Of a stretch of DNA of 64,000 bases, positions 3,278-50,089 are shown piece after piece (the first letter of the stretch is position 1; every line of letters begins with the position of its first letter). Both the position numbers and the translations under genes were made by a program. The notes beneath the pieces are model-generated. The model was not told where the DNA came from. It ran no database searches and saw only the letters and a program-made list of their open reading frames with translations. Source of the stretch: Christensenellaceae bacterium (GTDB lineage: Bacteria > Bacillota > Clostridia > Christensenellales > CAG-138); NCBI GenBank assembly GCA_031261085.1, contig JAISKB010000018.1, forward strand, positions 14,409 through 78,408, written 5' to 3'.

Positions 3278-4537
3278 ATGGCGAAATTCATCGTGGAGGG
3301 CGGGTATCCGCTCGTGGGCACGGCCAAGGTATCCGGGGCGAAAAACGCCGCATTGCCCATATTGGCCGCCAGCCTGATATGCCGCGGCCAAATACGGCTG
3401 CGCGGCTGCCCGCGGCTGCGGGATGTGGATAACATGCTCACGATACTTGCGGATTTGGGCGTGTGCTGCGCGTGGGAACCAAACGGCGGCTTAACGCTGG
3501 ATACGGCGGATGGGGTGGAATATGTGATGCCCCAGCGTATATCGAAGGAGCTGCGATCCTCCATTTTTATGCTGGGGCCGCTGTTGGCCCGGTGCGGCAA
3601 AGCGGTGTGCACCTACCCGGGCGGCTGCGAAATAGGCAACCGGCCCATCGATTTGCACCTGAGCGGCTTAAGCGCGCTGGGCGTGCAGATACGCGAGGAA
3701 CGCGGGCTTATACTCTGCGACGGCAGCGCCATGCGGGGCGCCGATATACATTTGGACTACCCCAGCGTGGGCGCCACCGAAAACATCATGATGGCGGCGG
3801 TGGCCGCCAAGGGCACCACCTATATCCGCAACGCGGCGCGCGAGCCCGAAACCGAGGATTTGCAAGCCTTTTTAAACGCGCTGGGCTGCGATGTGAGCGG
3901 CGCGGGCACCTCCAGTGTGCGCGTCAACGGCGGGCTGCCGCCCAAGGCCTATGTGCAGTACGACATCATGCCGGATCGTATCGTGGCCGGCACGCTGCTG
4001 TGCGGCGCGGCCATGACGGGCGGCGAAATCACGCTGAACAACGTGGTGCCGCAGCATGTGGGCAGTATGCTCAGCAAGCTGCGCGAGGCGGGCTGCGTGA
4101 TAGCCTGCGGGGAAAAGAGCGTTGCCCTGCGCGCGCCCAAGCGGCTGGGCGAAATAAAGATGATAGAAACGCTGCCCTACCCGGGCTTCCCGACCGATAT
4201 GCAGGCGCAGTTTTTTTCGCTGGCCACCATTGCGGATGGCATCTGCGTGATTGTGGAAAACGTGTTTGAAAACCGTTTTAAGCACGGGCCGGAGCTAACC
4301 CGCATGGGCGCCATCTATACGCAAAAGGATCGTACCACCGTCATACGCGGCGTAAAGGAGCTCACGGGCGCGCAGGTGGTGGCGCGGGATCTTAGGGGCG
4401 GGGCGGCGCTGACGCTGGCAGGGCTGGCCGCAACCGGCATAACCACCATACACGAGGCGGAGCTCATCGACCGCGGTTACGAGCGGCTGGACGCCATGCT
4501 GTGCGGCCTGGGCGCACATGTAACCAGGGAAGTATAA
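3278..4537 (+). CDS. murA: UDP-N-acetylglucosamine 1-carboxyvinyltransferase
   Basis: MurA-like sequence throughout (MAKFIVEGG..., [13 protein letters not shown], active-site loop [14 protein letters not shown]). The start was moved to the internal ATG that begins the conserved N-terminus. Confidence 0.92.
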
Positions 4538-12356: not shown

Positions 12357-14663
12357 ATGATTACCACCATTAAAAAGCGAGACGGTCGGGTCTCGTCATT
12401 CGACGTCGAAAAGATCGCCGTCGCTATCGAAAAAGCATTTGCCGCCACCGGCGTGAAGTGCGACAATATCACAAACCTCGCGCAAGAGGTTATGCAGCGG
12501 CTGGATGAAGCCGGGGTAGAAGAACCCGAGGTTGAGCAGATTCAAGACTGCGTGGAGCGGGTGCTCATCGACAACGGCCATGTGCGCACCGCCAAGGCCT
12601 ATATCCTATACCGGGCGGAGCGCAGCCGCGTGCGGCAGGCCAATACCCGCCTGATGCGCATCTACGAGGATATCACCTATAAAGATGCCCTCGACAGCGA
12701 CATCAAGCGCGAAAACGCCAATATCGACGGCAACACGGCCATGGGATCCATGCTCAAATACGGCAGCGAGGGCGCCAAGCAGTTTTATGAGCTGTATGTG
12801 CTCAATCCCAAGCACGCGGCCGCGCACCGCGAAGGGGATATTCATATCCACGACCTCGATTTTTATACGCTCACCACCACCTGCTGCCAAATCGACCTGC
12901 TGCGCCTGTTCGACGGCGGCTTTTCGACCGGCCATGGCGTTTTGCGGGAGCCCAAGCACATATCCAGCTACGCCGCGCTGGCCTGCATCGCCATACAATC
13001 CAACCAAAACGACCAGCACGGCGGGCAGAGCATCGTCAACTTCGATTACGGTCTGGCGCCCGGCGTGGCCAAAACCTACATGCAAAACTATACGCGGCAC
13101 CTATCCCGCAGCCTGGAGCTGCTGCTGGATGAACCAAACGATGTGATAGAGGGCATAAACCAACAGCTCAAAAACGAAAACCTGAAGCCTTCCCTGGATG
13201 ACAGCAACGGGTACCTTGCCCGGGAGCGCGAGCTATACCTAGCCGCCGGCTTGGATACAAAACTTTTCGATAAGGCGCAGGCGTTCACCCGCGAAAAGGC
13301 GGTGGATGATACCGACCGCGATACCTACAAGGCCATGGTGGCGCTGGTGCACAACCTCAACACCATGCACTCGCGCGCCGGCGCGCAAACGCCGTTTTCC
13401 AGCATCAACTATGGCATGGATACCAGCGCCGAGGGCCGCATGGTGATGAAGAACATGCTGCTTGCCACTGAGGCGGGGCTGGGCAACGGGGAAACGCCCA
13501 TATTCCCCATACAGATATTCCGCGTAAAAGAGGGGATTAACTATAACCCCGGCGAGCCCAACTACGACCTGTTTCGTTTGGCATGCCGCTGTTCCGCCAA
13601 GCGGCTGTTCCCCAACTTTTCGTTCATCGACGCCCCCTTCAACCTGCCCTACTATAAGCCCGGGCAGTACGAAACCGAGGTGGGCTACATGGGCTGCCGC
13701 ACCCGCGTGATGGCCAACTATTACGACCCAACCAACGAGATTGCGCCCCGCCGCGGCAACCTCAGCTTTACTACCGTTAACCTGCCCCGCATCGCCATAC
13801 TTTCGGGCGGCAATATCGAGTGGTTCTTCGATGAGCTGGACCGCAAGCTGGAGCTTTGCGCCGACCAGCTGCTGGAGCGCTTTGCGATACAGAGCAAAAA
13901 GAAGGTGTGCAATTATCCGTTCCTCATGGGCGAGGGCTGCTGGCTGGGGAGCGAAAACCTGGGCTGGGACGACGAGGTAGGCGAGGTGCTCAAGCACGGC
14001 ACGCTGTCGGTGGGCTTCATTGGCTTGGCCGAATGCCTGTATGCGCTCATCGGCGAGCACCACGGCCAAAGCGAGCGCGCGCAGAACATGGGCTTGGAGA
14101 TCATATCCCACATGCGCAAATGGCTCGATGAAACCACGCGCAAGCGCAACCTCAACTTCACGCTGCTGGCCACGCCCGCCGAGGGTTTGAGCGGCCGCTT
14201 CGTAAAGCTGGATAAAAAGCGTTTTGGCTCCATACCCGGCGTGACCGACCGGGAATATTATACCAACAGCTTCCATATACCCGTGTATTTCCCCATCAGC
14301 GCCTTCGATAAAATCAAGCTCGAAGCGCCCTATCACGCCTTGACCAACGCGGGGCACATCAGCTATGTGGAGTTGGATGGCGACACGGCCAAAAATTTGG
14401 ATGCGTTCGAGAGCATCGTACGCTGCATGAAAGAAAACGGCGTGGGCTACGGCTCCATCAATCACCCGGTGGATAGGGATAGCGTGTGCGGCTATAACGG
14501 CATAATAGGGGACACATGCCCCAAGTGCGGCCGCAGCGAGCACGAAAGCGGCCCGCAGTTCCAACGCATACGCCGCATTACGGGGTACCTGGTGGGCACG
14601 CTGGATCGCTTCAACAACGCCAAACGAACCGAAGAGGCGGATAGGGTTAAGCATACGCTGTAA
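12357..14663 (+). CDS. nrdD: anaerobic ribonucleoside-triphosphate reductase (class III)
   Basis: 768 aa with an ATP-cone-like N-terminus, a C-terminal Zn site (CPKCG) and the glycyl-radical motif RRITGYLVG. AGGAG RBS. Confidence 0.96.
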   Translation: MITTIKKRDGRVSSFDVEKIAVAIEKAFAATGVKCDNITNLAQEVMQRLDEAGVEEPEVEQIQDCVERVLIDNGHVRTAKAYILYRAERSRVRQANTRLMRIYEDITYKDALDSDIKRENANIDGNTAMGSMLKYGSEGAKQFYELYVLNPKHAAAHREGDIHIHDLDFYTLTTTCCQIDLLRLFDGGFSTGHGVLREPKHISSYAALACIAIQSNQNDQHGGQSIVNFDYGLAPGVAKTYMQNYTRHLSRSLELLLDEPNDVIEGINQQLKNENLKPSLDDSNGYLARERELYLAAGLDTKLFDKAQAFTREKAVDDTDRDTYKAMVALVHNLNTMHSRAGAQTPFSSINYGMDTSAEGRMVMKNMLLATEAGLGNGETPIFPIQIFRVKEGINYNPGEPNYDLFRLACRCSAKRLFPNFSFIDAPFNLPYYKPGQYETEVGYMGCRTRVMANYYDPTNEIAPRRGNLSFTTVNLPRIAILSGGNIEWFFDELDRKLELCADQLLERFAIQSKKKVCNYPFLMGEGCWLGSENLGWDDEVGEVLKHGTLSVGFIGLAECLYALIGEHHGQSERAQNMGLEIISHMRKWLDETTRKRNLNFTLLATPAEGLSGRFVKLDKKRFGSIPGVTDREYYTNSFHIPVYFPISAFDKIKLEAPYHALTNAGHISYVELDGDTAKNLDAFESIVRCMKENGVGYGSINHPVDRDSVCGYNGIIGDTCPKCGRSEHESGPQFQRIRRITGYLVGTLDRFNNAKRTEEADRVKHTL

Positions 14664-14682
14664 CCCAACGCCCACCCACTAA

Positions 14683-14704
14683 CCCCCTCCCTAAAGGGAG
14701 GGGG
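14683..14704. repeat. perfect C5/G5 palindrome in the nrdD-nrdG spacer
   Basis: CCCCCTCCCT-aa-AGGGAGGGGG forms a 10-bp perfect stem. It is preceded by CCCACCCACTAACCCCC, a motif also seen at 20698 and 45652. Confidence 0.7.
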
Positions 14705-14793
14705 AACTATATTAAAAAACTTTGTTTTTGGGGGCTTTGCCTCGGCTGCGGCGCGGCCGCAACACCCCTCCTTCCCCATAAAAGGAGTATCTT

Positions 14794-15306
14794 ATGCAAA
14801 TCCGCCTATCCGGCGTAGTATACGATTCCATCGTGGATGGCCCCGGCCTGCGCGCCGCCATCTTCACACAGGGCTGCCCGCACGCCTGCCCCGGCTGCCA
14901 TAACCCGCTCACGCACGACCCCGCGGGCGGTTATTTGGAGGATACCGACAGCATACTCGCCGCCCTCGATAAAAACCCGCTCGCCCGCGGCATCACGCTG
15001 ACCGGCGGCGAGCCCTTTGAACAACCCGCGGCCTGCCTGGCCCTCGCGCGCGGCGCGCATGCGCTGGGTAAAGATGTGTGGGCGTTTTCGGGCTATACGC
15101 TGGAGCGGCTGCGCGCAAAAAACGACCCCGATACAGCCGCGCTGCTCGAGGAGCTGGATGTGCTGGTGGACGGGCCATTTATACTGAAGGAACGCTCGCT
15201 GGATTTGGACTTTCGCGGCAGCAAAAACCAGCGCGTGCTCGATATGCGCAAAACCGGCGGAGGCGTCCCCGTGCTTTGGCAGGACCCTTGGAAGTTGTCC
15301 TTTTGA
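14794..15306 (+). CDS. nrdG: anaerobic ribonucleotide reductase activating protein (radical SAM)
   Basis: 170 aa with the radical-SAM cluster motif GCPHACPGCHNP and GGEPF. AAGGAG RBS, downstream of nrdD. Confidence 0.93.
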   Translation: MQIRLSGVVYDSIVDGPGLRAAIFTQGCPHACPGCHNPLTHDPAGGYLEDTDSILAALDKNPLARGITLTGGEPFEQPAACLALARGAHALGKDVWAFSGYTLERLRAKNDPDTAALLEELDVLVDGPFILKERSLDLDFRGSKNQRVLDMRKTGGGVPVLWQDPWKLSF

Positions 15307-15326
15307 TAACTGACAAAAATTCGCTA

Positions 15327-15354
15327 TTGACAACGGCTCAAAATATTATATAAT
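15327..15354 (+). promoter_or_regulatory. sigma-A-type promoter of the Fur-family gene, with a 10-bp palindrome over the -10
   Basis: TTGACA (15327-15332), 16-nt spacer, TATAAT (15349-15354). The perfect palindrome ATTATATAAT (15345-15354) overlaps the -10 and could be an autoregulatory Fur/PerR-type half-site arrangement. Confidence 0.6.
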
Positions 15355-15389
15355 AACATTAAGAACAATTATCATTATATAGGATGGTT

Positions 15390-15764
15390 ATGATTTATTC
15401 AAAACAAAGGGAACTCGTGCTGGATGCGCTGTGTAAGGCGGGCCAAATGCATCCTACCGCGGACATGCTGTATGCCGATATACGCGCGGCCTTTCCTACT
15501 ATCAGCTTGGCCACCGTATACCGCAACCTCAACCAATTCGCCGATGCGGGGCAGATTGCGCGCGTGCGCATACCCGGCTGTGCCGATAGGTTTGACGCGG
15601 TAAACGACGGGCACCAGCATATGCTCTGCACCGAATGCGGCAAGGTGGTGGATATCCCCGCCTCGGCACTGCCCGATATATGCGGCGCGGCACAAAGCGC
15701 CACGCATCTGCATATCGATAGCTGCAAGCTCATGCTGTATGGCAGGTGCGAAGGCTGCGAATAA
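15390..15764 (+). CDS. Fur-family transcriptional regulator (Fur/PerR/Zur type not resolved)
   Basis: A winged-helix N-terminus (ISLATVYRNLNQFADAG), HQH, and two CxxC pairs (CTECG ... CEGC). The start could be 15384 or 15390; an AGGA RBS favours 15390. Confidence 0.85.
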   Translation: MIYSKQRELVLDALCKAGQMHPTADMLYADIRAAFPTISLATVYRNLNQFADAGQIARVRIPGCADRFDAVNDGHQHMLCTECGKVVDIPASALPDICGAAQSATHLHIDSCKLMLYGRCEGCE

Positions 15765-15786
15765 GCTTAAAGATTGATTTTAATAA

Positions 15787-15812
15787 ACGCGCCGGGGCTG
15801 GGCGCGTTTTTT
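15787..15812 (+). terminator. rho-independent terminator after the Fur-family gene
   Basis: ACGCGCC-ggggctg-GGCGCGT stem followed by TTTTT. Confidence 0.75.
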
Positions 15813-15830
15813 ATATGGTTTTATGATAAC

Positions 15831-15854
15831 AAAAAGGCCCTTAAAAAGGGCCTT
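15831..15854 (-). terminator. rho-independent terminator after the zinc-ribbon gene
   Basis: The minus strand reads AAGGCCC-uuuuuaa-GGGCCUU followed by UUUUU. Confidence 0.65.
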
Positions 15855-15944
15855 GATTGCTTTTTCTAATTCACCGATTTATCCGCAGCGCGGAAATAGG
15901 GGATTAGTAAGCCGCTGTGCCTAAAAAGGCTGTCGTCTTGTTGG

Positions 15945-16214
15945 TTACCTGCGGGCCTGGAAGCAAGCGCTGCAGTAGATCGGGCGATCGTTTTTGGGAA
16001 CGAACGGGATCTTGGTGGGCGCGCCACACTCGGCACAAACGGCATCGTACATTTCACGTTCACCGCTGCGCTGGGTTTTACGCGTGTTCCTGCATGCCTT
16101 GCAGCGAATGGGCTCATTCTGGAAACCCTTTTCAGCGTAGAATTCCTGCTCTCCGGCAGTGAAAATGAACTCAGCGCCGCAATCCTTGCATACCAAAGTC
16201 TTGTCTACGAACAT
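15945..16214 (-). CDS. double zinc-ribbon protein (zf-trcl-like CxxC...CxxC plus CxxC-x17-CxxC)
   Basis: 89 aa. The first ribbon is CKDCG-x25-CKAC within ...FTAGEQEFYAEKGF.... The second is CAECG-(17 residues)-CSAC. There is an AAGGGG RBS. Function is unknown. Confidence 0.8.
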   Translation of the reverse strand: MFVDKTLVCKDCGAEFIFTAGEQEFYAEKGFQNEPIRCKACRNTRKTQRSGEREMYDAVCAECGAPTKIPFVPKNDRPIYCSACFQARR

Positions 16215-16247
16215 CGTGATAAAATCCCCTTGTAAAATATATTTTTT

Positions 16248-16480
16248 GGTTGTTCATGCTTTCGGCTGACCTGGTCTTTGACCCCACACTCGCCGCCTGG
16301 AAGGTTCGCTACTAGGCAATTACGCCGCCCACTACTGCTTCTCTCGCGCGGTTTCCCACGCGGACGGGCTTACATCTAAGCCGCACCATGCTCACGGGCG
16401 GTTATACGCCCGCTTATGTGGATCGTTTCGCCTGCGACTGGCATCGATTTGCAACCACAGCCCGAATATCCGAACAACCA
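16248..16480 (-). ncRNA. candidate structured RNA (standalone sRNA or long 5' leader of the zinc-ribbon gene), family not recognised
   Basis: No ORF of 60 aa or more lies here on either strand. A consensus promoter puts +1 at about 16480. An 8-bp closing helix pairs GGUUGUUC (16479-16472) with GAACAACC (16255-16248). Internal perfect hairpins lie at 16413-16394, at 16382-16367 (GGCUUA-GAUG-UAAGCC) and at 16362-16345 (7 bp with a GAAA tetraloop). Confidence 0.45.
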
Positions 16481-16486
16481 ATTTAT

Positions 16487-16515
16487 ATTATAATCTAAAC
16501 GTATAGAAAAAACAA
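16487..16515 (-). promoter_or_regulatory. strong sigma-A-type promoter with A/T-rich UP-like tract
   Basis: The minus strand reads TTGTTT (16515-16510), 17-nt spacer, TATAAT (16492-16487). An AAATAAAAAAAATAG tract lies just upstream (16521-16540). Confidence 0.6.
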
Positions 16516-16624
16516 CAACTATTTTTTTTATTTATGCCTGCCGCATTTTGGGAAATACCATACACGGCAAACAAAAGGCTTCCATCTTTTTGAAAACGTC
16601 GCTGTTCTCGAAGGAAATTTCGCA

Positions 16625-17185
16625 TCAATGCGGGGGGGTATCATCGTATTGCGCCCGTGGGCCGCCCACATATTTGGGGCGGGTGCGCGCCATCACGAGG
16701 CCGGCCTCGCCGATGTGCCGCGTGTTCGCGTGGATGGGCACAGCCACCGAGCGCAGATGCATGCCGATGAGCGTGCCGCCAATATCCATGCCCGCGCGCG
16801 CCTTCGAGCGCAGGTCCTCCACCATCACATAATCGCGCAGCTGCTCCATAGCCTGCATCGCAAACGCGCCACCCGCGTGCAGGTGCGGCCGCACCCAAAC
16901 CTGCTGCAGGTCATATTGCTCCATACAGGCGCGCTCCACCACCAGGCAGCGGTTTAAGTGCTCGCAGCATTGCACGCACAAAAACAGGCCGCGCTTTTGC
17001 GTTTCGGGCAATATGGCCCGCATAACGGCGGCGGCCGCCTCGTGCGAGGAGCCGGTGCCTATGCGCTTGCCGCAAATTTCGCTGGTAGAGCAGCCTACCA
17101 CCAGCATATCGCCTTGTTTCAAGCCTTCCGCCGCCAACAGCAATTCTGCGATGGCCGCCTTGGCTTGCTCGTATACTTGTTGCAT
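16625..17185 (-). CDS. TIGR01440/UPF0340 (YwlG-like) family protein
   Basis: Conserved blocks VVGCSTSEICGKRIG, QCCEHLNRCLVVER and DIGGTLIGMHL. The start was set at the ATG with a GGAGGG RBS (17185); the ORF-track N-terminal extension has no support. Confidence 0.85.
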   Translation of the reverse strand: MQQVYEQAKAAIAELLLAAEGLKQGDMLVVGCSTSEICGKRIGTGSSHEAAAAVMRAILPETQKRGLFLCVQCCEHLNRCLVVERACMEQYDLQQVWVRPHLHAGGAFAMQAMEQLRDYVMVEDLRSKARAGMDIGGTLIGMHLRSVAVPIHANTRHIGEAGLVMARTRPKYVGGPRAQYDDTPPH

Positions 17186-17419
17186 AGTTCCCTCCAACGT
17201 GGTATAAACGTAACCTCCCACATTATAGCGGCTTTGCGCGCGGGTTGCAACCATACGATTCAAGCGGCCGCGCGGCTTCGAGCAAGCATAACCCCAAGAG
17301 CGCGCAGCGAGTATGCCGCGCTTTGGGCAAAACGGCTTGACAAGCCGAAATGGCAAACCCTATACTACATGAGTAGCGCAAGGGCGCAATGGATGTAAAA
17401 GGGAAGAAGGCGCTTTTTT

Positions 17420-19945
17420 ATGGATACGATTCGCGGCTCGCTGGGCGAACTCGCGCCGGGGCAAAGCGGATATGTTTATGCGGTGGATACCGCCGATTCA
17501 CGCGTCCGCGGCCGCATTGTGGATATGGGCATCACGCCGGGCATTGAGGTTACGCTCGTGAAGGCGGCGCCTATGGGCGACCCCATCGAGGTATCGCTTC
17601 GGGGGTACTCGCTTTCGCTGCGCCGCGCCGACGCCCTGCATATCACGCTGATGAGCGGGGCCGAGCAGGAGGAATATCTGCGCAAGCGGCAGGCGGCGCA
17701 GGGCGAGCACGCACGCAGCGCCCGCGCGCAGCTGAGCCATGCGCGGGATACCGACGCCGCGGGGCACCGGCAGGCGGCCAGGCTAACCGCCATATTCGAA
17801 ACCCGCCGGGCAAACCGCCCCTTGCGCCCCCTGCCGAATGATGACGATGCGCCGGTGAAGCTGGCGCTGGTGGGCAACCCCAACTGCGGTAAAACCACGC
17901 TGTTTAACGCCATGACGGGCGGGCACGAGTATGTGGGCAACTGGCCCGGCGTCACGGTCGAAAAGAAAGAGGGCCGGGTGAAGCAGCCCAACCGGGGCAC
18001 GGTGGGGCAGCCTGCCCTATATACGCACGGGCATGAGATGACGCTGGTGGATTTGCCCGGCATCTACTCGCTGTCGCCGCACTCCATGGAGGAGATCATC
18101 GCGCGGCGCTTCATCGTGGATGAAAAGCCGGACGCCGTTATCAACATCGTGGATGGAACCAATCTGGAGCGCAACCTATACCTGACCGTGCAGCTGCTGG
18201 AGCTGGAACGGCCCATGATTATCGCGCTCAACATGATGGATGAGGTAAAAAAGAACGGCGATCAAATCGACATACAGCGGCTTTCGCTGGAGCTTGGCAT
18301 ACCCGTCATCCCGATTTCGGCGCGCACCGGCATGGGGGTGGATTTGCTCATCGAGCAGGCGCAAAAGCTGATTCACGCCATACATGTGCAGATGCACGAG
18401 GGCTTCAACATCGAGCCGGATGACGTATACGACGACTATACCCACGCGGCGCATCACCGCATAGGCGAGGTGGCGGAGCAATATGCGGCGAAAGCGGGGC
18501 TGCCGCTGCACTGGGCGGAGATTAAGCTGCTGGAGGGGGACCCGCTGCTTAAAGAGCGGCTGCACATGCCGCCGGAGGCGCAGGCGAAAATAGACGCCAT
18601 CGCAAGGGAATATGCTTCGGCCAACCCCTTGGGCGATAACGAAACCATGGTGGCGGATAGCCGCTATCAATATGTGGGGCGGGTGTGCGAGGCGGCGCTG
18701 CGCCGGGCGCGCGGGCAGGGCGAAGGCTCCCCTTCCAATAAAATCGACGCGGTGCTTACGAATAAGGTTTTGGCGATTCCGATTTTTATCGGTATCATGC
18801 TGTTGATATTTTCGCTCACGTTTTCTACGGTAGGCGCGTGGCTGAGCAATATGGTGAGCGTGCTGATATGGGATTTGCTCATACCCTATGTGCGCGCGGC
18901 GTTGGAGCGGGTGGACGCGTTTGCCTGGCTTACCAGCCTGGTTTGCGATGGCATACTCACCGGCGTGGGCGGCGTGCTCACGTTTTTGCCGCAGATTGCC
19001 ATACTGTTCTTCTGCCTATCCCTGCTGGAGGATAGCGGGTATATGAGCCGCATCGCCTTCATTATGGATAAGCCGATGCGCCGCTTTGGCTTAAGCGGCA
19101 AAAGCTTCATACCGCTTTTGATGGGGTTTGGCTGCACGGTGCCCGCCGCCATGGGCGCGCGCACCATGGATAACGAAAAGGATAAGCGCATGACCATATT
19201 GCTGCTGCCCTTTATGAGCTGCTCGGCCAAGCTGCCGGTATATGGGCTGATTGCGGGCGCGTTTTTTTCAAAGGGCAGGGGGCTTATTATACTAAGCCTG
19301 TATGCTTTGGGCATATTGATGGGCATCGCCTCGGGGCTGCTGTTTAAAAAGAAGCTGTTCGCCGGGCAGGATGCTCCCTTTGTTATAGAACTGCCGCCTT
19401 ACCGCGTGCCCACGGCGCGCAATACGTTCACGCATGTGTGGGAGCGGGTGCGCCACTTTTTGCAGCGGGCGGGCACGGTGATATTTGCCGTGAGCGTGCT
19501 GCTGTGGTTTTTGCAGAGCTTCGATTTTAGGCTGGCGCTAACACAGGATGCCGCCCGCAGCATATTGGGCACGCTGGGCGGCGTGGTTGCCCCGCTGTTT
19601 ACGCCGCTGGGCTTTGGCACCTGGCAGGCGGCGGTGGCGTTGCTGACCGGCATCGCGGCCAAGGAGGCGGTGGTGAGCAGCCTGGCCATGTTTTATGGGT
19701 TTTCGCTCTCGGCGCAAAACGGGGCCATCGCCGCGGCGCTTTCCACCACGTTTACACCGCGCGCGGCCTATGCCTTTTTGGTGTTCGTATTGCTGTATAC
19801 GCCTTGCCTGGCGGCGGTAACCACCATGCACCGCGAGCTCAACAGCGGAAAGTGGACCGTTTTTGCCATCGTATATCAAATCGTGGTGGCGTATTTGGTG
19901 TCCTTTGCCGTATATATGATTTTGGGATTATTTCTTACGCATTGA
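17420..19945 (+). CDS. feoB: ferrous iron transporter FeoB with fused N-terminal FeoA domain
   Basis: A FeoA-like SH3 domain occupies roughly residues 1-80. A low-complexity linker of about 70 aa follows, then the G domain (LVGNPNCGKTTLFNAMTG) and a polytopic permease. Confidence 0.92.
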   Translation: MDTIRGSLGELAPGQSGYVYAVDTADSRVRGRIVDMGITPGIEVTLVKAAPMGDPIEVSLRGYSLSLRRADALHITLMSGAEQEEYLRKRQAAQGEHARSARAQLSHARDTDAAGHRQAARLTAIFETRRANRPLRPLPNDDDAPVKLALVGNPNCGKTTLFNAMTGGHEYVGNWPGVTVEKKEGRVKQPNRGTVGQPALYTHGHEMTLVDLPGIYSLSPHSMEEIIARRFIVDEKPDAVINIVDGTNLERNLYLTVQLLELERPMIIALNMMDEVKKNGDQIDIQRLSLELGIPVIPISARTGMGVDLLIEQAQKLIHAIHVQMHEGFNIEPDDVYDDYTHAAHHRIGEVAEQYAAKAGLPLHWAEIKLLEGDPLLKERLHMPPEAQAKIDAIAREYASANPLGDNETMVADSRYQYVGRVCEAALRRARGQGEGSPSNKIDAVLTNKVLAIPIFIGIMLLIFSLTFSTVGAWLSNMVSVLIWDLLIPYVRAALERVDAFAWLTSLVCDGILTGVGGVLTFLPQIAILFFCLSLLEDSGYMSRIAFIMDKPMRRFGLSGKSFIPLLMGFGCTVPAAMGARTMDNEKDKRMTILLLPFMSCSAKLPVYGLIAGAFFSKGRGLIILSLYALGILMGIASGLLFKKKLFAGQDAPFVIELPPYRVPTARNTFTHVWERVRHFLQRAGTVIFAVSVLLWFLQSFDFRLALTQDAARSILGTLGGVVAPLFTPLGFGTWQAAVALLTGIAAKEAVVSSLAMFYGFSLSAQNGAIAAALSTTFTPRAAYAFLVFVLLYTPCLAAVTTMHRELNSGKWTVFAIVYQIVVAYLVSFAVYMILGLFLTH

Positions 19946-49693: not shown

Positions 49694-49770
49694 GCGCCTG
49701 TAGCTCAGCTGGATAGAGCAACGGCCTTCTAAGCCGTAGGCCCAGGGTTCGAATCCCTGCGGGCGCGCCA
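49694..49770 (+). tRNA. tRNA-Arg (anticodon UCU)
   Basis: Hand-folded cloverleaf: acceptor GCGCCUG/CGGGCGC, D arm GCUC...GAGC, anticodon stem ACGGC/GCCGU with loop CUUCUAA, T arm CAGGG-UUCGAAU-CCCUG, encoded CCA. Confidence 0.9.
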
Positions 49771-49867
49771 ACCCTATTTGCGTTTGCATCTTGCGATAGC
49801 AAGTCAAGCGCAGCAGGCGTGCGGGGTATCTTTTTCGGAGTACCCTGCCACATCCGTTTCATGATAT

Positions 49868-49946
49868 GGTGGGTATAGTTCAGCCTGGTTAGAATGCCAG
49901 ATTGTGGCTCTGGAGGTCGTGGGTTCGAGTCCCACTACCCACCCCA
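49868..49946 (+). tRNA. tRNA-His (anticodon GUG) with encoded G-1
   Basis: G-1 plus acceptor GUGGGUA/UACCCAC, anticodon stem CCAGA/UCUGG with loop UUGUGGC, T arm GUGGG-UUCGAGU-CCCAC, C73, encoded CCA. Confidence 0.9.
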
Positions 49947-50014
49947 TATTGCCATGAGTGGCCGTGCCGGTTCGCCTGAGTGGCGCGTTAGTGCGGCCAT
50001 CTCATTACCCACAA

Positions 50015-50089
50015 TGGGGTGTCGCCAAGCGGTAAGGCACGGGACTTTGACTCCCGCATGCGTAGGTTCAAATCCTGCCACCCCAGCCA
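50015..50089 (+). tRNA. tRNA-Gln (anticodon UUG)
   Basis: Acceptor UGGGGUG/CACCCCA, anticodon stem CGGGA/UCCCG with loop CUUUGAC, T arm GUAGG-UUCAAAU-CCUGC, encoded CCA. Confidence 0.88.

Follow-up and report, generated by a model that had tools for sequence, protein, structure and literature searches.

A raiA motif (ModT) RNA directly upstream of a small zinc-ribbon gene in a Christensenellaceae bacterium and related Clostridia

The raiA motif RNA was first described in 2017 (PMC5737381). Among Bacillota and Actinomycetota it is known from over 2,500 species, and its usual place is between comFC and raiA/hpf (PMC10861870, PMC11706538). These neighbours are typical of the family and do not define it: comFC lies upstream in 74% of cases and raiA/hpf downstream in 66%. 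The RNA has its own SigA promoter, reaches very high abundance and stability, and acts in trans, as demonstrated by the complementation of deletions in trans; cells from which it has been deleted are altered in how they sporulate, aggregate and enter stationary phase (PMC10861870, PMC11706538). Cryo-EM structures show a compact core from which the P1 stem protrudes (PMC12968392), and the fold of the RNA is described in one published account as a new RNA 3D fold. In the closing stem P1, a GU bulge and a GGU bulge mark off three parts, P1a, P1b and P1c (PMC12968392). [quoted passage not shown]

C. acetobutylicum and C. difficile have the RNA as a unit of its own that terminates independently, and the authors of that work rate gene neighbourhood as a poor guide to function; in most lineages other than the present one the RNA is far from, or opposite to, the neighbouring genes. 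Gene neighbourhoods gave Soares et al. no strong candidate for a protein partner, and Lence et al. considered synteny a poor indicator of raiA RNA function. The raiA papers that we consulted name no zinc-ribbon neighbour in their main texts. Among small proteins of the CxxC-x17-CxxC type, zinc binding has been shown for archaeal members.

We analysed a stretch of 64,000 nucleotides from a Christensenellaceae bacterium (contig JAISKB010000018.1, positions 14,409 to 78,408), hereafter the window, in which positions are counted from its first letter. A cmscan search of the whole window against Rfam 15 revealed that 16470..16257 on the minus strand matches RF03072, the raiA RNA family, scoring 179.6 bits where the gathering score is 101.3, with an E value of 1.2e-45. 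The alignment spans model positions 1-209, is full length with both ends complete, and is the sole strong non-tRNA Rfam match in the whole window. A permissive Rfam scan of the region gave the same RF03072 result and nothing credible besides it, and neither scan found a match there to 6S RNA, RNase P RNA, SRP RNA or tmRNA. The nearest related loci come from Clostridia MAGs (Candidatus Pelethousia, Acutalibacteraceae, Christensenellaceae), in agreement with the known hosts of the family among Bacillota and Actinomycetota. An earlier note, made from the letters of this DNA, had described an orphan RNA that matches no known class and had named a significant Rfam match as one result that would overturn this; since the match to RF03072 is strong, the RNA is not an orphan and that description has to be abandoned. 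The locus almost certainly encodes a raiA motif (ModT) RNA, which, with its extended closing helix, we predict to occupy 16246..16481 on the minus strand, as judged from the Rfam match, the minimum free energy (MFE) fold and 39 relatives. The RNA itself is an ordinary member of a known family and is not new.

The structural part of the earlier description fared better. The gap between 16215 and 16624 contains no credible ORF, as had been claimed, and the RNA of about 235 nt in it is indeed structured: the MFE of a 243-nt stretch is -96.2 kcal/mol (z = -3.75), and none of 200 dinucleotide shuffles folds as well. At the outer edge, GGUUGUUC (16479-16472) is complementary to GAACAACC (16255-16248) on the minus strand, which is the closing helix that the note had read there, and in the MFE fold it extends to 11 bp, pairing 16481-16471 with 16256-16246. 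The two strands of this P1a extension are UUGGUUGUUCG (5' strand, 16471..16481, minus strand), which lies outside the Rfam model, and UGAACAACCAA (3' strand, 16246..16256, minus strand), both taken from the MFE fold and also seen as a duplex in relatives. Comparison of the window with 42 related loci showed the 5' leader pairing with the 3' tail over 9-20 bp in 41 of these 43, with a sequence that differs among loci. Because the duplex varies from locus to locus, the outer helix is a genuine covarying extension of P1a. A second helix had been noted at 16466-16458 (UUCGG-G-CUG) with 16268-16261 (CAG-CCGAA); this pairing is present and corresponds to P1a and P1b. In the window, P1a as a whole consists of 5 bp, a 4x4 internal loop and 11 bp, only part of which the Rfam model covers. 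The three parts of the published P1 can be recognised as UUCGG/CCGAA (P1a), CUG/CAG (P1b), the GGU bulge and UGGUU/GACCA (P1c), with two deviations, namely the 11-bp P1a extension and a GU bulge reduced to G by deletion of the U, which is also seen in one relative (locus L003).

The relatives were also used to evaluate the interior of the fold. When the Rfam consensus structure was placed on 39 relatives, 83.7% of cells were paired, compared with 33-46% when the 3' partners were slid, and 30 pairs showed compensatory changes, a score that none of 500 shuffles attained; both the Rfam model and these pair counts comprise nested pairs only. The fold is thus kept in relatives. About 80 columns of the 39-sequence alignment are invariant. 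A helix predicted by RNAalifold on a MAFFT alignment (columns 26-36 with 48-58) was rejected: it joins invariant segments, lacks covariation and conflicts with the Rfam consensus and with P1 in the cryo-EM structures. As the Rfam consensus scored far better, it replaced the RNAalifold fold.

Three perfect local hairpins had been listed in the earlier note, and two of them hold. The peripheral hairpin GCGGGCG-UAUAAC-CGCCCGU (16394..16413, minus strand) is formed by Rfam consensus pairs and shows compensatory changes (columns 76-80 with 97-101). The hairpin CGCGUGG-GAAA-CCGCGCG (16345..16362, minus strand) is helix 7 of the Rfam consensus, in which 4 of 5 pairs covary in relatives, and by our reading it corresponds to P5 of the published models. 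In some relatives the sequence at or near the equivalent of this hairpin is enlarged by an insertion of ~85-150 nt. The remaining one, GGCUUA-GAUG-UAAGCC, does not belong to the family fold: its bases are shared with the 3' strand of P3, the linker and the first pair of P4, it showed zero compensatory changes in the 39 relatives, and its score was attained by 478 of 500 shuffles. We regard it as an artefact of local folding, one that would sequester the linker that is single-stranded in the cryo-EM structures. This linker, UUAGAUGUAA (16370..16379, minus strand), matches the published UUAGA(C/A)GUAA (PMC12968392) except at its sixth base, a position that is also variable among the 39 relatives.

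Helices picked out by eye carry a general hazard, and they could in principle be a chance product of GC-rich intergenic DNA or a misreading of coding or repeat sequence; apart from that hazard, nothing speaks for such an origin. The E value of 1.2e-45 was obtained against a curated covariance model, the z score of -3.75 sets the fold apart from shuffled sequences, the covariation in 39 relatives is strong, and the gap contains no ORF of note. We therefore consider the chance that the helices are spurious to be negligible.

The RNA very probably has its own sigma-A-type promoter, judging from sequence elements whose position is conserved in relatives. On the minus strand, a putative -35 element, TTGTTT (16510..16515), is followed after a spacer of 17 nt by a putative -10 element, TATAAT (16487..16492), and an A-rich tract resembling an UP element lies 5' of the -35 (16520..16535). 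A perfect TATAAT is found at the equivalent site in 42 of 43 related loci, TTGnnn (mostly TTGC) lies 17 nt 5' of it in nearly all relatives, and a comparable A-rich tract is present in most of the 43. A scan for consensus promoters did not list TTGTTT-17-TATAAT, which we attribute to the -35, as just 3 of its 6 bases agree with TTGACA. Positional conservation in relatives thus backs the predicted promoter far better than its match to the consensus does. The promoter had been described as a consensus one; its coordinates, its 17-nt spacer and the A-rich tract agree with that account, while the word consensus does not suit a -35 of this kind. The 5' end is predicted near 16481-16479, at the foot of the extended P1a, and in 41 of 43 loci the distance from the -10 to the P1a duplex is 1-8 nt, so that the duplex starts where transcription is expected to begin.

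Downstream of the RNA on the same strand lies a gene for a protein of 89 aa (15945..16214, minus strand; ATG at 16214). The earlier note had called it a double zinc-ribbon gene, and both domains were matched in Pfam: zf_Tbcl (PF13451) with an E value of 3.2e-26 and zf_Tbcl_2 (PF23477) with 4.5e-20, the product also matching TIGR04272 and carrying the CxxC-x17-CxxC pattern. More than 4,000 relatives of the protein were found at E < 1e-5, and annotation gives it a bare name, either 'zinc-ribbon domain containing protein' or 'CxxC-x17-CxxC domain-containing protein'. An AlphaFold2 model (pLDDT 87) predicts two zinc modules, each a beta-hairpin plus helix. A Foldseek search of the PDB with this model gave no significant match (best E 0.16), and the PDB holds no sequence relatives of the protein, a profile search returning only C2H2-repeat noise. 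A link to the ribosome-hibernation factors SriA/SriB was considered and rejected: the Foldseek hit to 9znf_BV, from a structure of the M. acetivorans ribosome with SriA/SriB, has an E value of 1.1 and is noise, and the Sri proteins are CBS-domain proteins rather than zinc ribbons.

To the upstream side, the window carries a gene of the DUF436/TIGR01440 family, and the typical comFC/hpf neighbourhood is replaced by DUF436 upstream and zf_Tbcl downstream. Two samples were used to evaluate how often the RNA and the zinc-ribbon gene occur together. The first was anchored on the protein and comprised 80 genomic loci encoding zinc-ribbon relatives, in which the RNA was sought by profile nhmmer; a raiA RNA was present directly upstream on the same strand in 43 of the 80. 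Rfam confirmed all 6 of the related RNAs submitted to it, with 151-181 bits. The second was anchored on the RNA and was drawn from metagenome contigs with a core raiA pattern; of 120 loci, 105 had the RNA and 96 of these had at least 330 nt downstream. The zinc-ribbon gene followed the RNA at a distance of 22-49 nt in 16 of the 96 loci, always on the same strand. The naively picked downstream ORFs of the same loci included periplasmic binding protein (16), Hpf (14), SecA (2) and response regulators (2), counts that are lower bounds for every family other than zinc-ribbon. Since the naive ORFs recovered the published neighbours, the RNA-anchored sample looks representative, and within it the zinc-ribbon gene is about as frequent downstream as hpf or periplasmic binding protein.

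Around the pair, gene content differs between loci. DUF436 is upstream in 13 of the 43 loci (tblastn), and the naively picked flanking ORFs fall into 43 Pfam families upstream and 42 downstream, including Pribosyltran (ComFC-like) three times, RecD2 once and Hpf once. A 3.9-Mb assembly has the order of the window, with DUF436, a raiA RNA (188 bits) and the zinc-ribbon gene. In the cultured Gehongia tenuis, at about 92.3-97.5 kb of contig JACRSR010000003.1 in assembly GCA_014384795.1, the order is RecD2, ComFC, raiA RNA (184 bits), the zinc-ribbon gene 41 nt on, three genes and Hpf, which places the zinc-ribbon gene inside the canonical raiA neighbourhood. As far as the compared sequences go, raiA RNA and the zinc-ribbon gene are, in these gut Clostridia, a conserved pair amid changing flanks. 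As a separate observation, zinc-ribbon genes without a raiA RNA are often preceded by a tRNA-like leader; this leader matches no Rfam family at the gathering score (the tRNA model gives 20.9 bits against 29), and ARAGORN found no tRNA gene in it.

The arrangement could be that of a riboswitch-like leader acting in cis, which would respond to a ligand or protein and so regulate how the zinc-ribbon gene is transcribed or translated. Rfam assigns RF03072 the type 'Cis-reg; riboswitch', in this lineage the RNA stands where a 5' UTR would, 21-54 nt ahead of the start codon and in every case on the strand of the gene, and its fold is complex enough for a binding pocket. A riboswitch requires an expression platform, however, and none was found. 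No terminator or anti-terminator was detected in the scan of the window or in 41 spacers. Sequestration of the Shine-Dalgarno as an alternative platform was rejected, since its unpaired probability ranges from 0.05 to 0.97 (mean 0.47) over 42 loci without pattern or consistent signal. Elsewhere in the family the RNA is mostly distant from or opposite to its neighbours, deletions are complemented in trans in published work, and in published in vitro experiments raiA RNAs gave no evidence of binding small molecules. Control in cis is thus quite improbable. Two roles had been offered in the earlier note, that of a cis-regulatory leader and that of a processed stable RNA; the former fits poorly, given the missing platform, the inconsistent masking of the Shine-Dalgarno and a family that acts in trans, while the latter fits the published traits of the family, which is abundant, stable and trans-acting (PMC10861870, PMC11706538).

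How the RNA and the gene would be expressed depends on the spacer between them. In the window this is an A/U-rich segment of ~30 nt (16215..16245, minus strand) that shows neither a terminator hairpin nor a conserved promoter. As had been read earlier, the closing helix is followed by an A6 run, then by the Shine-Dalgarno AAGGGGA (16231-16225) and the ATG at 16214; the claim that no U-run terminator follows the RNA likewise stands, as the terminator scan of the window listed nothing terminator-like in the stretch from the RNA to the gene. Transcription from the RNA promoter would first meet a terminator candidate at 15834..15854 (minus strand), 3' of the zinc-ribbon gene; this is a hairpin with a T run, which scores on both strands and lies between that gene and a convergent Fur-family gene. 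Across 41 loci the end of P1a and the start codon are 21-54 nt apart (median 30), and the spacers are A/U-rich and end in a strong Shine-Dalgarno. A -10-like hexamer occurs in 8 of the 41 spacers, a T run of at least 4 in 19 (~6 nt after P1a) and one of at least 5 in 12. With such frequencies neither a terminator nor a second promoter is conserved; the idea that P1 and a T run act as an intrinsic terminator common to these loci was rejected, and so was that of a common internal promoter in the spacer. A short A/U-rich spacer with a strong ribosome-binding site, and with neither terminator nor promoter in between, makes read-through the most likely outcome.

We suggest the following scheme. Transcription from TTGTTT-17-TATAAT would start at the foot of P1a, where the RNA's 5' and 3' ends would pair. 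RNA polymerase would then read through, so that the raiA transcript would be lengthened on its 3' side by the zinc-ribbon mRNA and would meet its first terminator candidate after the zinc-ribbon gene, at 15854-15834. The stable RNA would be freed by nuclease trimming to the P1 helix, or by partial termination where a T run is present; some termination at P1 is possible, given the T run of at least 4 in 19 of the 41 spacers. For this organism, we infer the 5' end, the 3' end and the read-through from the DNA. We hold it likely that raiA RNA and the zinc-ribbon gene are co-transcribed. The joint account, in which a trans-acting raiA RNA with its own promoter would be read through into the zinc-ribbon gene, explains the locus as a whole with high probability.

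The two could also be abutting but separate units, brought together by neutral synteny or promoter hitch-hiking and lacking a functional link, with the RNA ending at or near the P1 helix or a T run and the gene transcribed from its own weak promoter in the spacer. The T run of at least 4 soon after P1a in 19 of 41 spacers and the -10-like hexamer in 8 of 41 are in line with this, as is a -10-like TATATT within the spacer of the window; moreover, 37 of the 80 zinc-ribbon loci lack the RNA and about five-sixths of the raiA loci lack the zinc-ribbon gene. Yet the T run and the hexamer are both unconserved across the pair. P1a is A/U-rich and the T run does not directly adjoin it, which would make a poor intrinsic terminator, and a transcript begun within the spacer would have hardly any leader 5' of the Shine-Dalgarno. 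Finally, the pair is kept while both flanks vary over more than 40 Pfam families. Separate units therefore seem unlikely to us, and we retain read-through from the RNA promoter as the preferred explanation.

The interest of this locus lies in the gene linkage and not in the RNA, as Rfam and the literature have covered raiA/ModT since 2017 and there are several cryo-EM structures of it. The attachment of a small zinc-binding protein gene to raiA RNA in many Clostridia is a possible clue to function and offers a candidate partner. It is conceivable, as a tentative proposal drawn from gene order, that raiA RNA and the zf_Tbcl/CxxC-x17-CxxC protein form a functional pair in which the protein binds, processes or works with the RNA. 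If true, this would be the first protein partner of raiA RNA suggested by gene linkage, and the pair would be co-transcribed from the RNA promoter in about one-sixth of the sampled raiA loci. The tRNA-like leaders elsewhere hint that the protein may recognise structured RNA or be fed by RNA processing. Because the pair is present in the cultured Gehongia tenuis, the idea of a partner can be tested by binding assays and genetics.

Compared with known systems, the locus resembles riboswitches and structured 5' leaders in that an RNA with a complex, conserved fold lies directly upstream of an ORF on the same strand, but raiA RNA differs from them in having no expression platform or known ligand and in belonging to a family that acts in trans. 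With 6S RNA, RNase P RNA, SRP RNA and tmRNA it shares a strong promoter of its own, a helix closing the 5' and 3' ends and a high expected stability, and published raiA RNAs rival them in abundance; the fold is distinct from theirs. Among the small zinc-binding proteins of the zf_Tbcl/CxxC-x17-CxxC family, the product of the gene in the window is typical in matching both Pfam models and TIGR04272; we found no published mention that connects this family with raiA RNA. The closest system is raiA RNA (RF03072; Weinberg 2017, Soares 2024, Lence 2024, He 2026) itself. The window departs from the published examples in its neighbours, DUF436 upstream and the zf_Tbcl gene downstream in place of comFC and raiA/hpf, in having no terminator after the RNA, in its extended P1a and in the single G that represents the GU bulge between P1a and P1b. 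It agrees with them in the full-length match to the covariance model, the P1 closing helix with its GGU bulge, the conserved core, the UUAGAUGUAA linker, an E-loop-type AGUA/GAA segment, the predicted sigma-A-type promoter of its own and a host among the Clostridia, and a close relative of the locus lies in the canonical comFC...hpf neighbourhood.

Comparison of the loci revealed a conserved pair composed of the raiA RNA (ModT) and a gene encoding a zinc-ribbon protein of the zf_Tbcl/CxxC-x17-CxxC type. The two lie on the same strand, separated by a gap of 21-54 nt, while the flanking genes are variable; in the window, the pair occupies positions 15945-16481 on the minus strand. It was present in 43 of the 80 loci found through the zinc-ribbon protein and in 16 of the 96 loci found through the RNA alone. 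The loci carrying the pair include L001-L030 and others, L201-L204, L089, L097, L107, L118, L122, L135, L136, L144, L156, L161, L169-L171, L175, L179 and L184. In a cultured species, Gehongia tenuis, the gene order is ComFC, the RNA, the zinc-ribbon gene and, farther on, Hpf. The raiA papers that we consulted make no reference to this pairing in their main text. A Clostridia-type pair was also observed on contigs labelled Alloprevotella sp., Bacteroidaceae bacterium and Phocaeicola dorei (L019, L020 and L024), which were probably mis-binned in MAGs of these taxa.

In the window, the RNA is surrounded by iron-related and anaerobic-metabolism genes (12357-19945). On the plus strand, these comprise a 768-aa ORF (12357-14663), which we take to resemble an anaerobic ribonucleotide reductase, the radical-SAM activase paired with it (14794-15306), a regulator of the Fur family (15384-15764) and a FeoA-FeoB fusion (17420-19945). 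The Candidatus Pelethousia locus L003 has counterparts of the 768-aa ORF (84% identical), of the activase, of FeoB and of DUF436, which suggests that the source organism is a close relative. Two terminator-like hairpins were located in 15785-15854, between the zinc-ribbon gene and the convergent Fur-family gene; because the hairpin at 15834-15854 scores as terminator-like on both strands, it may be a bidirectional terminator. Elsewhere in the window, Rfam detected a cluster of three tRNA genes on the plus strand (49694-50086), at 49694-49767, 49869-49943 and 50015-50086, with scores of 62-72 bits.

A tRNA-like element of ~70 nt was found in the leader of 10 of the 37 zinc-ribbon loci without raiA (L038, L039, L043, L050, L058, L061, L066, L072, L077 and L080). 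It lies about 36-120 nt 5' of the start codon (locus positions ~3880-3965, with the gene starting at 4001) and possesses an acceptor-like stem that covaries, a D-arm-like segment (UAGCUUAA..AGAGCG) and a T-arm-like segment (GGUGUCGGU...AGUCCG). The element often directly follows the 3' end of another gene, and judged by eye this end presumably resembles sigma-70 region 4. Against the Rfam tRNA model the element scored 20.9 bits, below the gathering score of 29; ARAGORN predicted no tRNA gene there, and no other Rfam family matched.

The raiA RNAs of this group also vary in structure. In some, the P5 hairpin or its vicinity holds an insertion of ~85-150 nt (L006 3669-3962; L017 3682-3964; L057 about 3618-3958; L203 2166-2460; L201 2165-2459), and those scored with Rfam (L006, L017, L203 and L201) nevertheless reached 168-184 bits across the full model. 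A GU bulge is replaced by a G bulge in the window (16461) and in L003. P1a, the outer part of the closing stem (window 16471-16481 and 16246-16256; columns 1-27 of the raiA RNA alignment A1), forms a duplex of 9 to 20 bp, and between the -10 element and the P1b anchor CUGUGG lie about 17 to 30 nt. The length of P1a, highly conserved according to the raiA literature, is not constant in this group. Rfam 15 assigns RF03072 (raiA) the type 'Cis-reg; riboswitch', whereas the experimental papers describe raiA as a trans-acting non-coding RNA without a known ligand.
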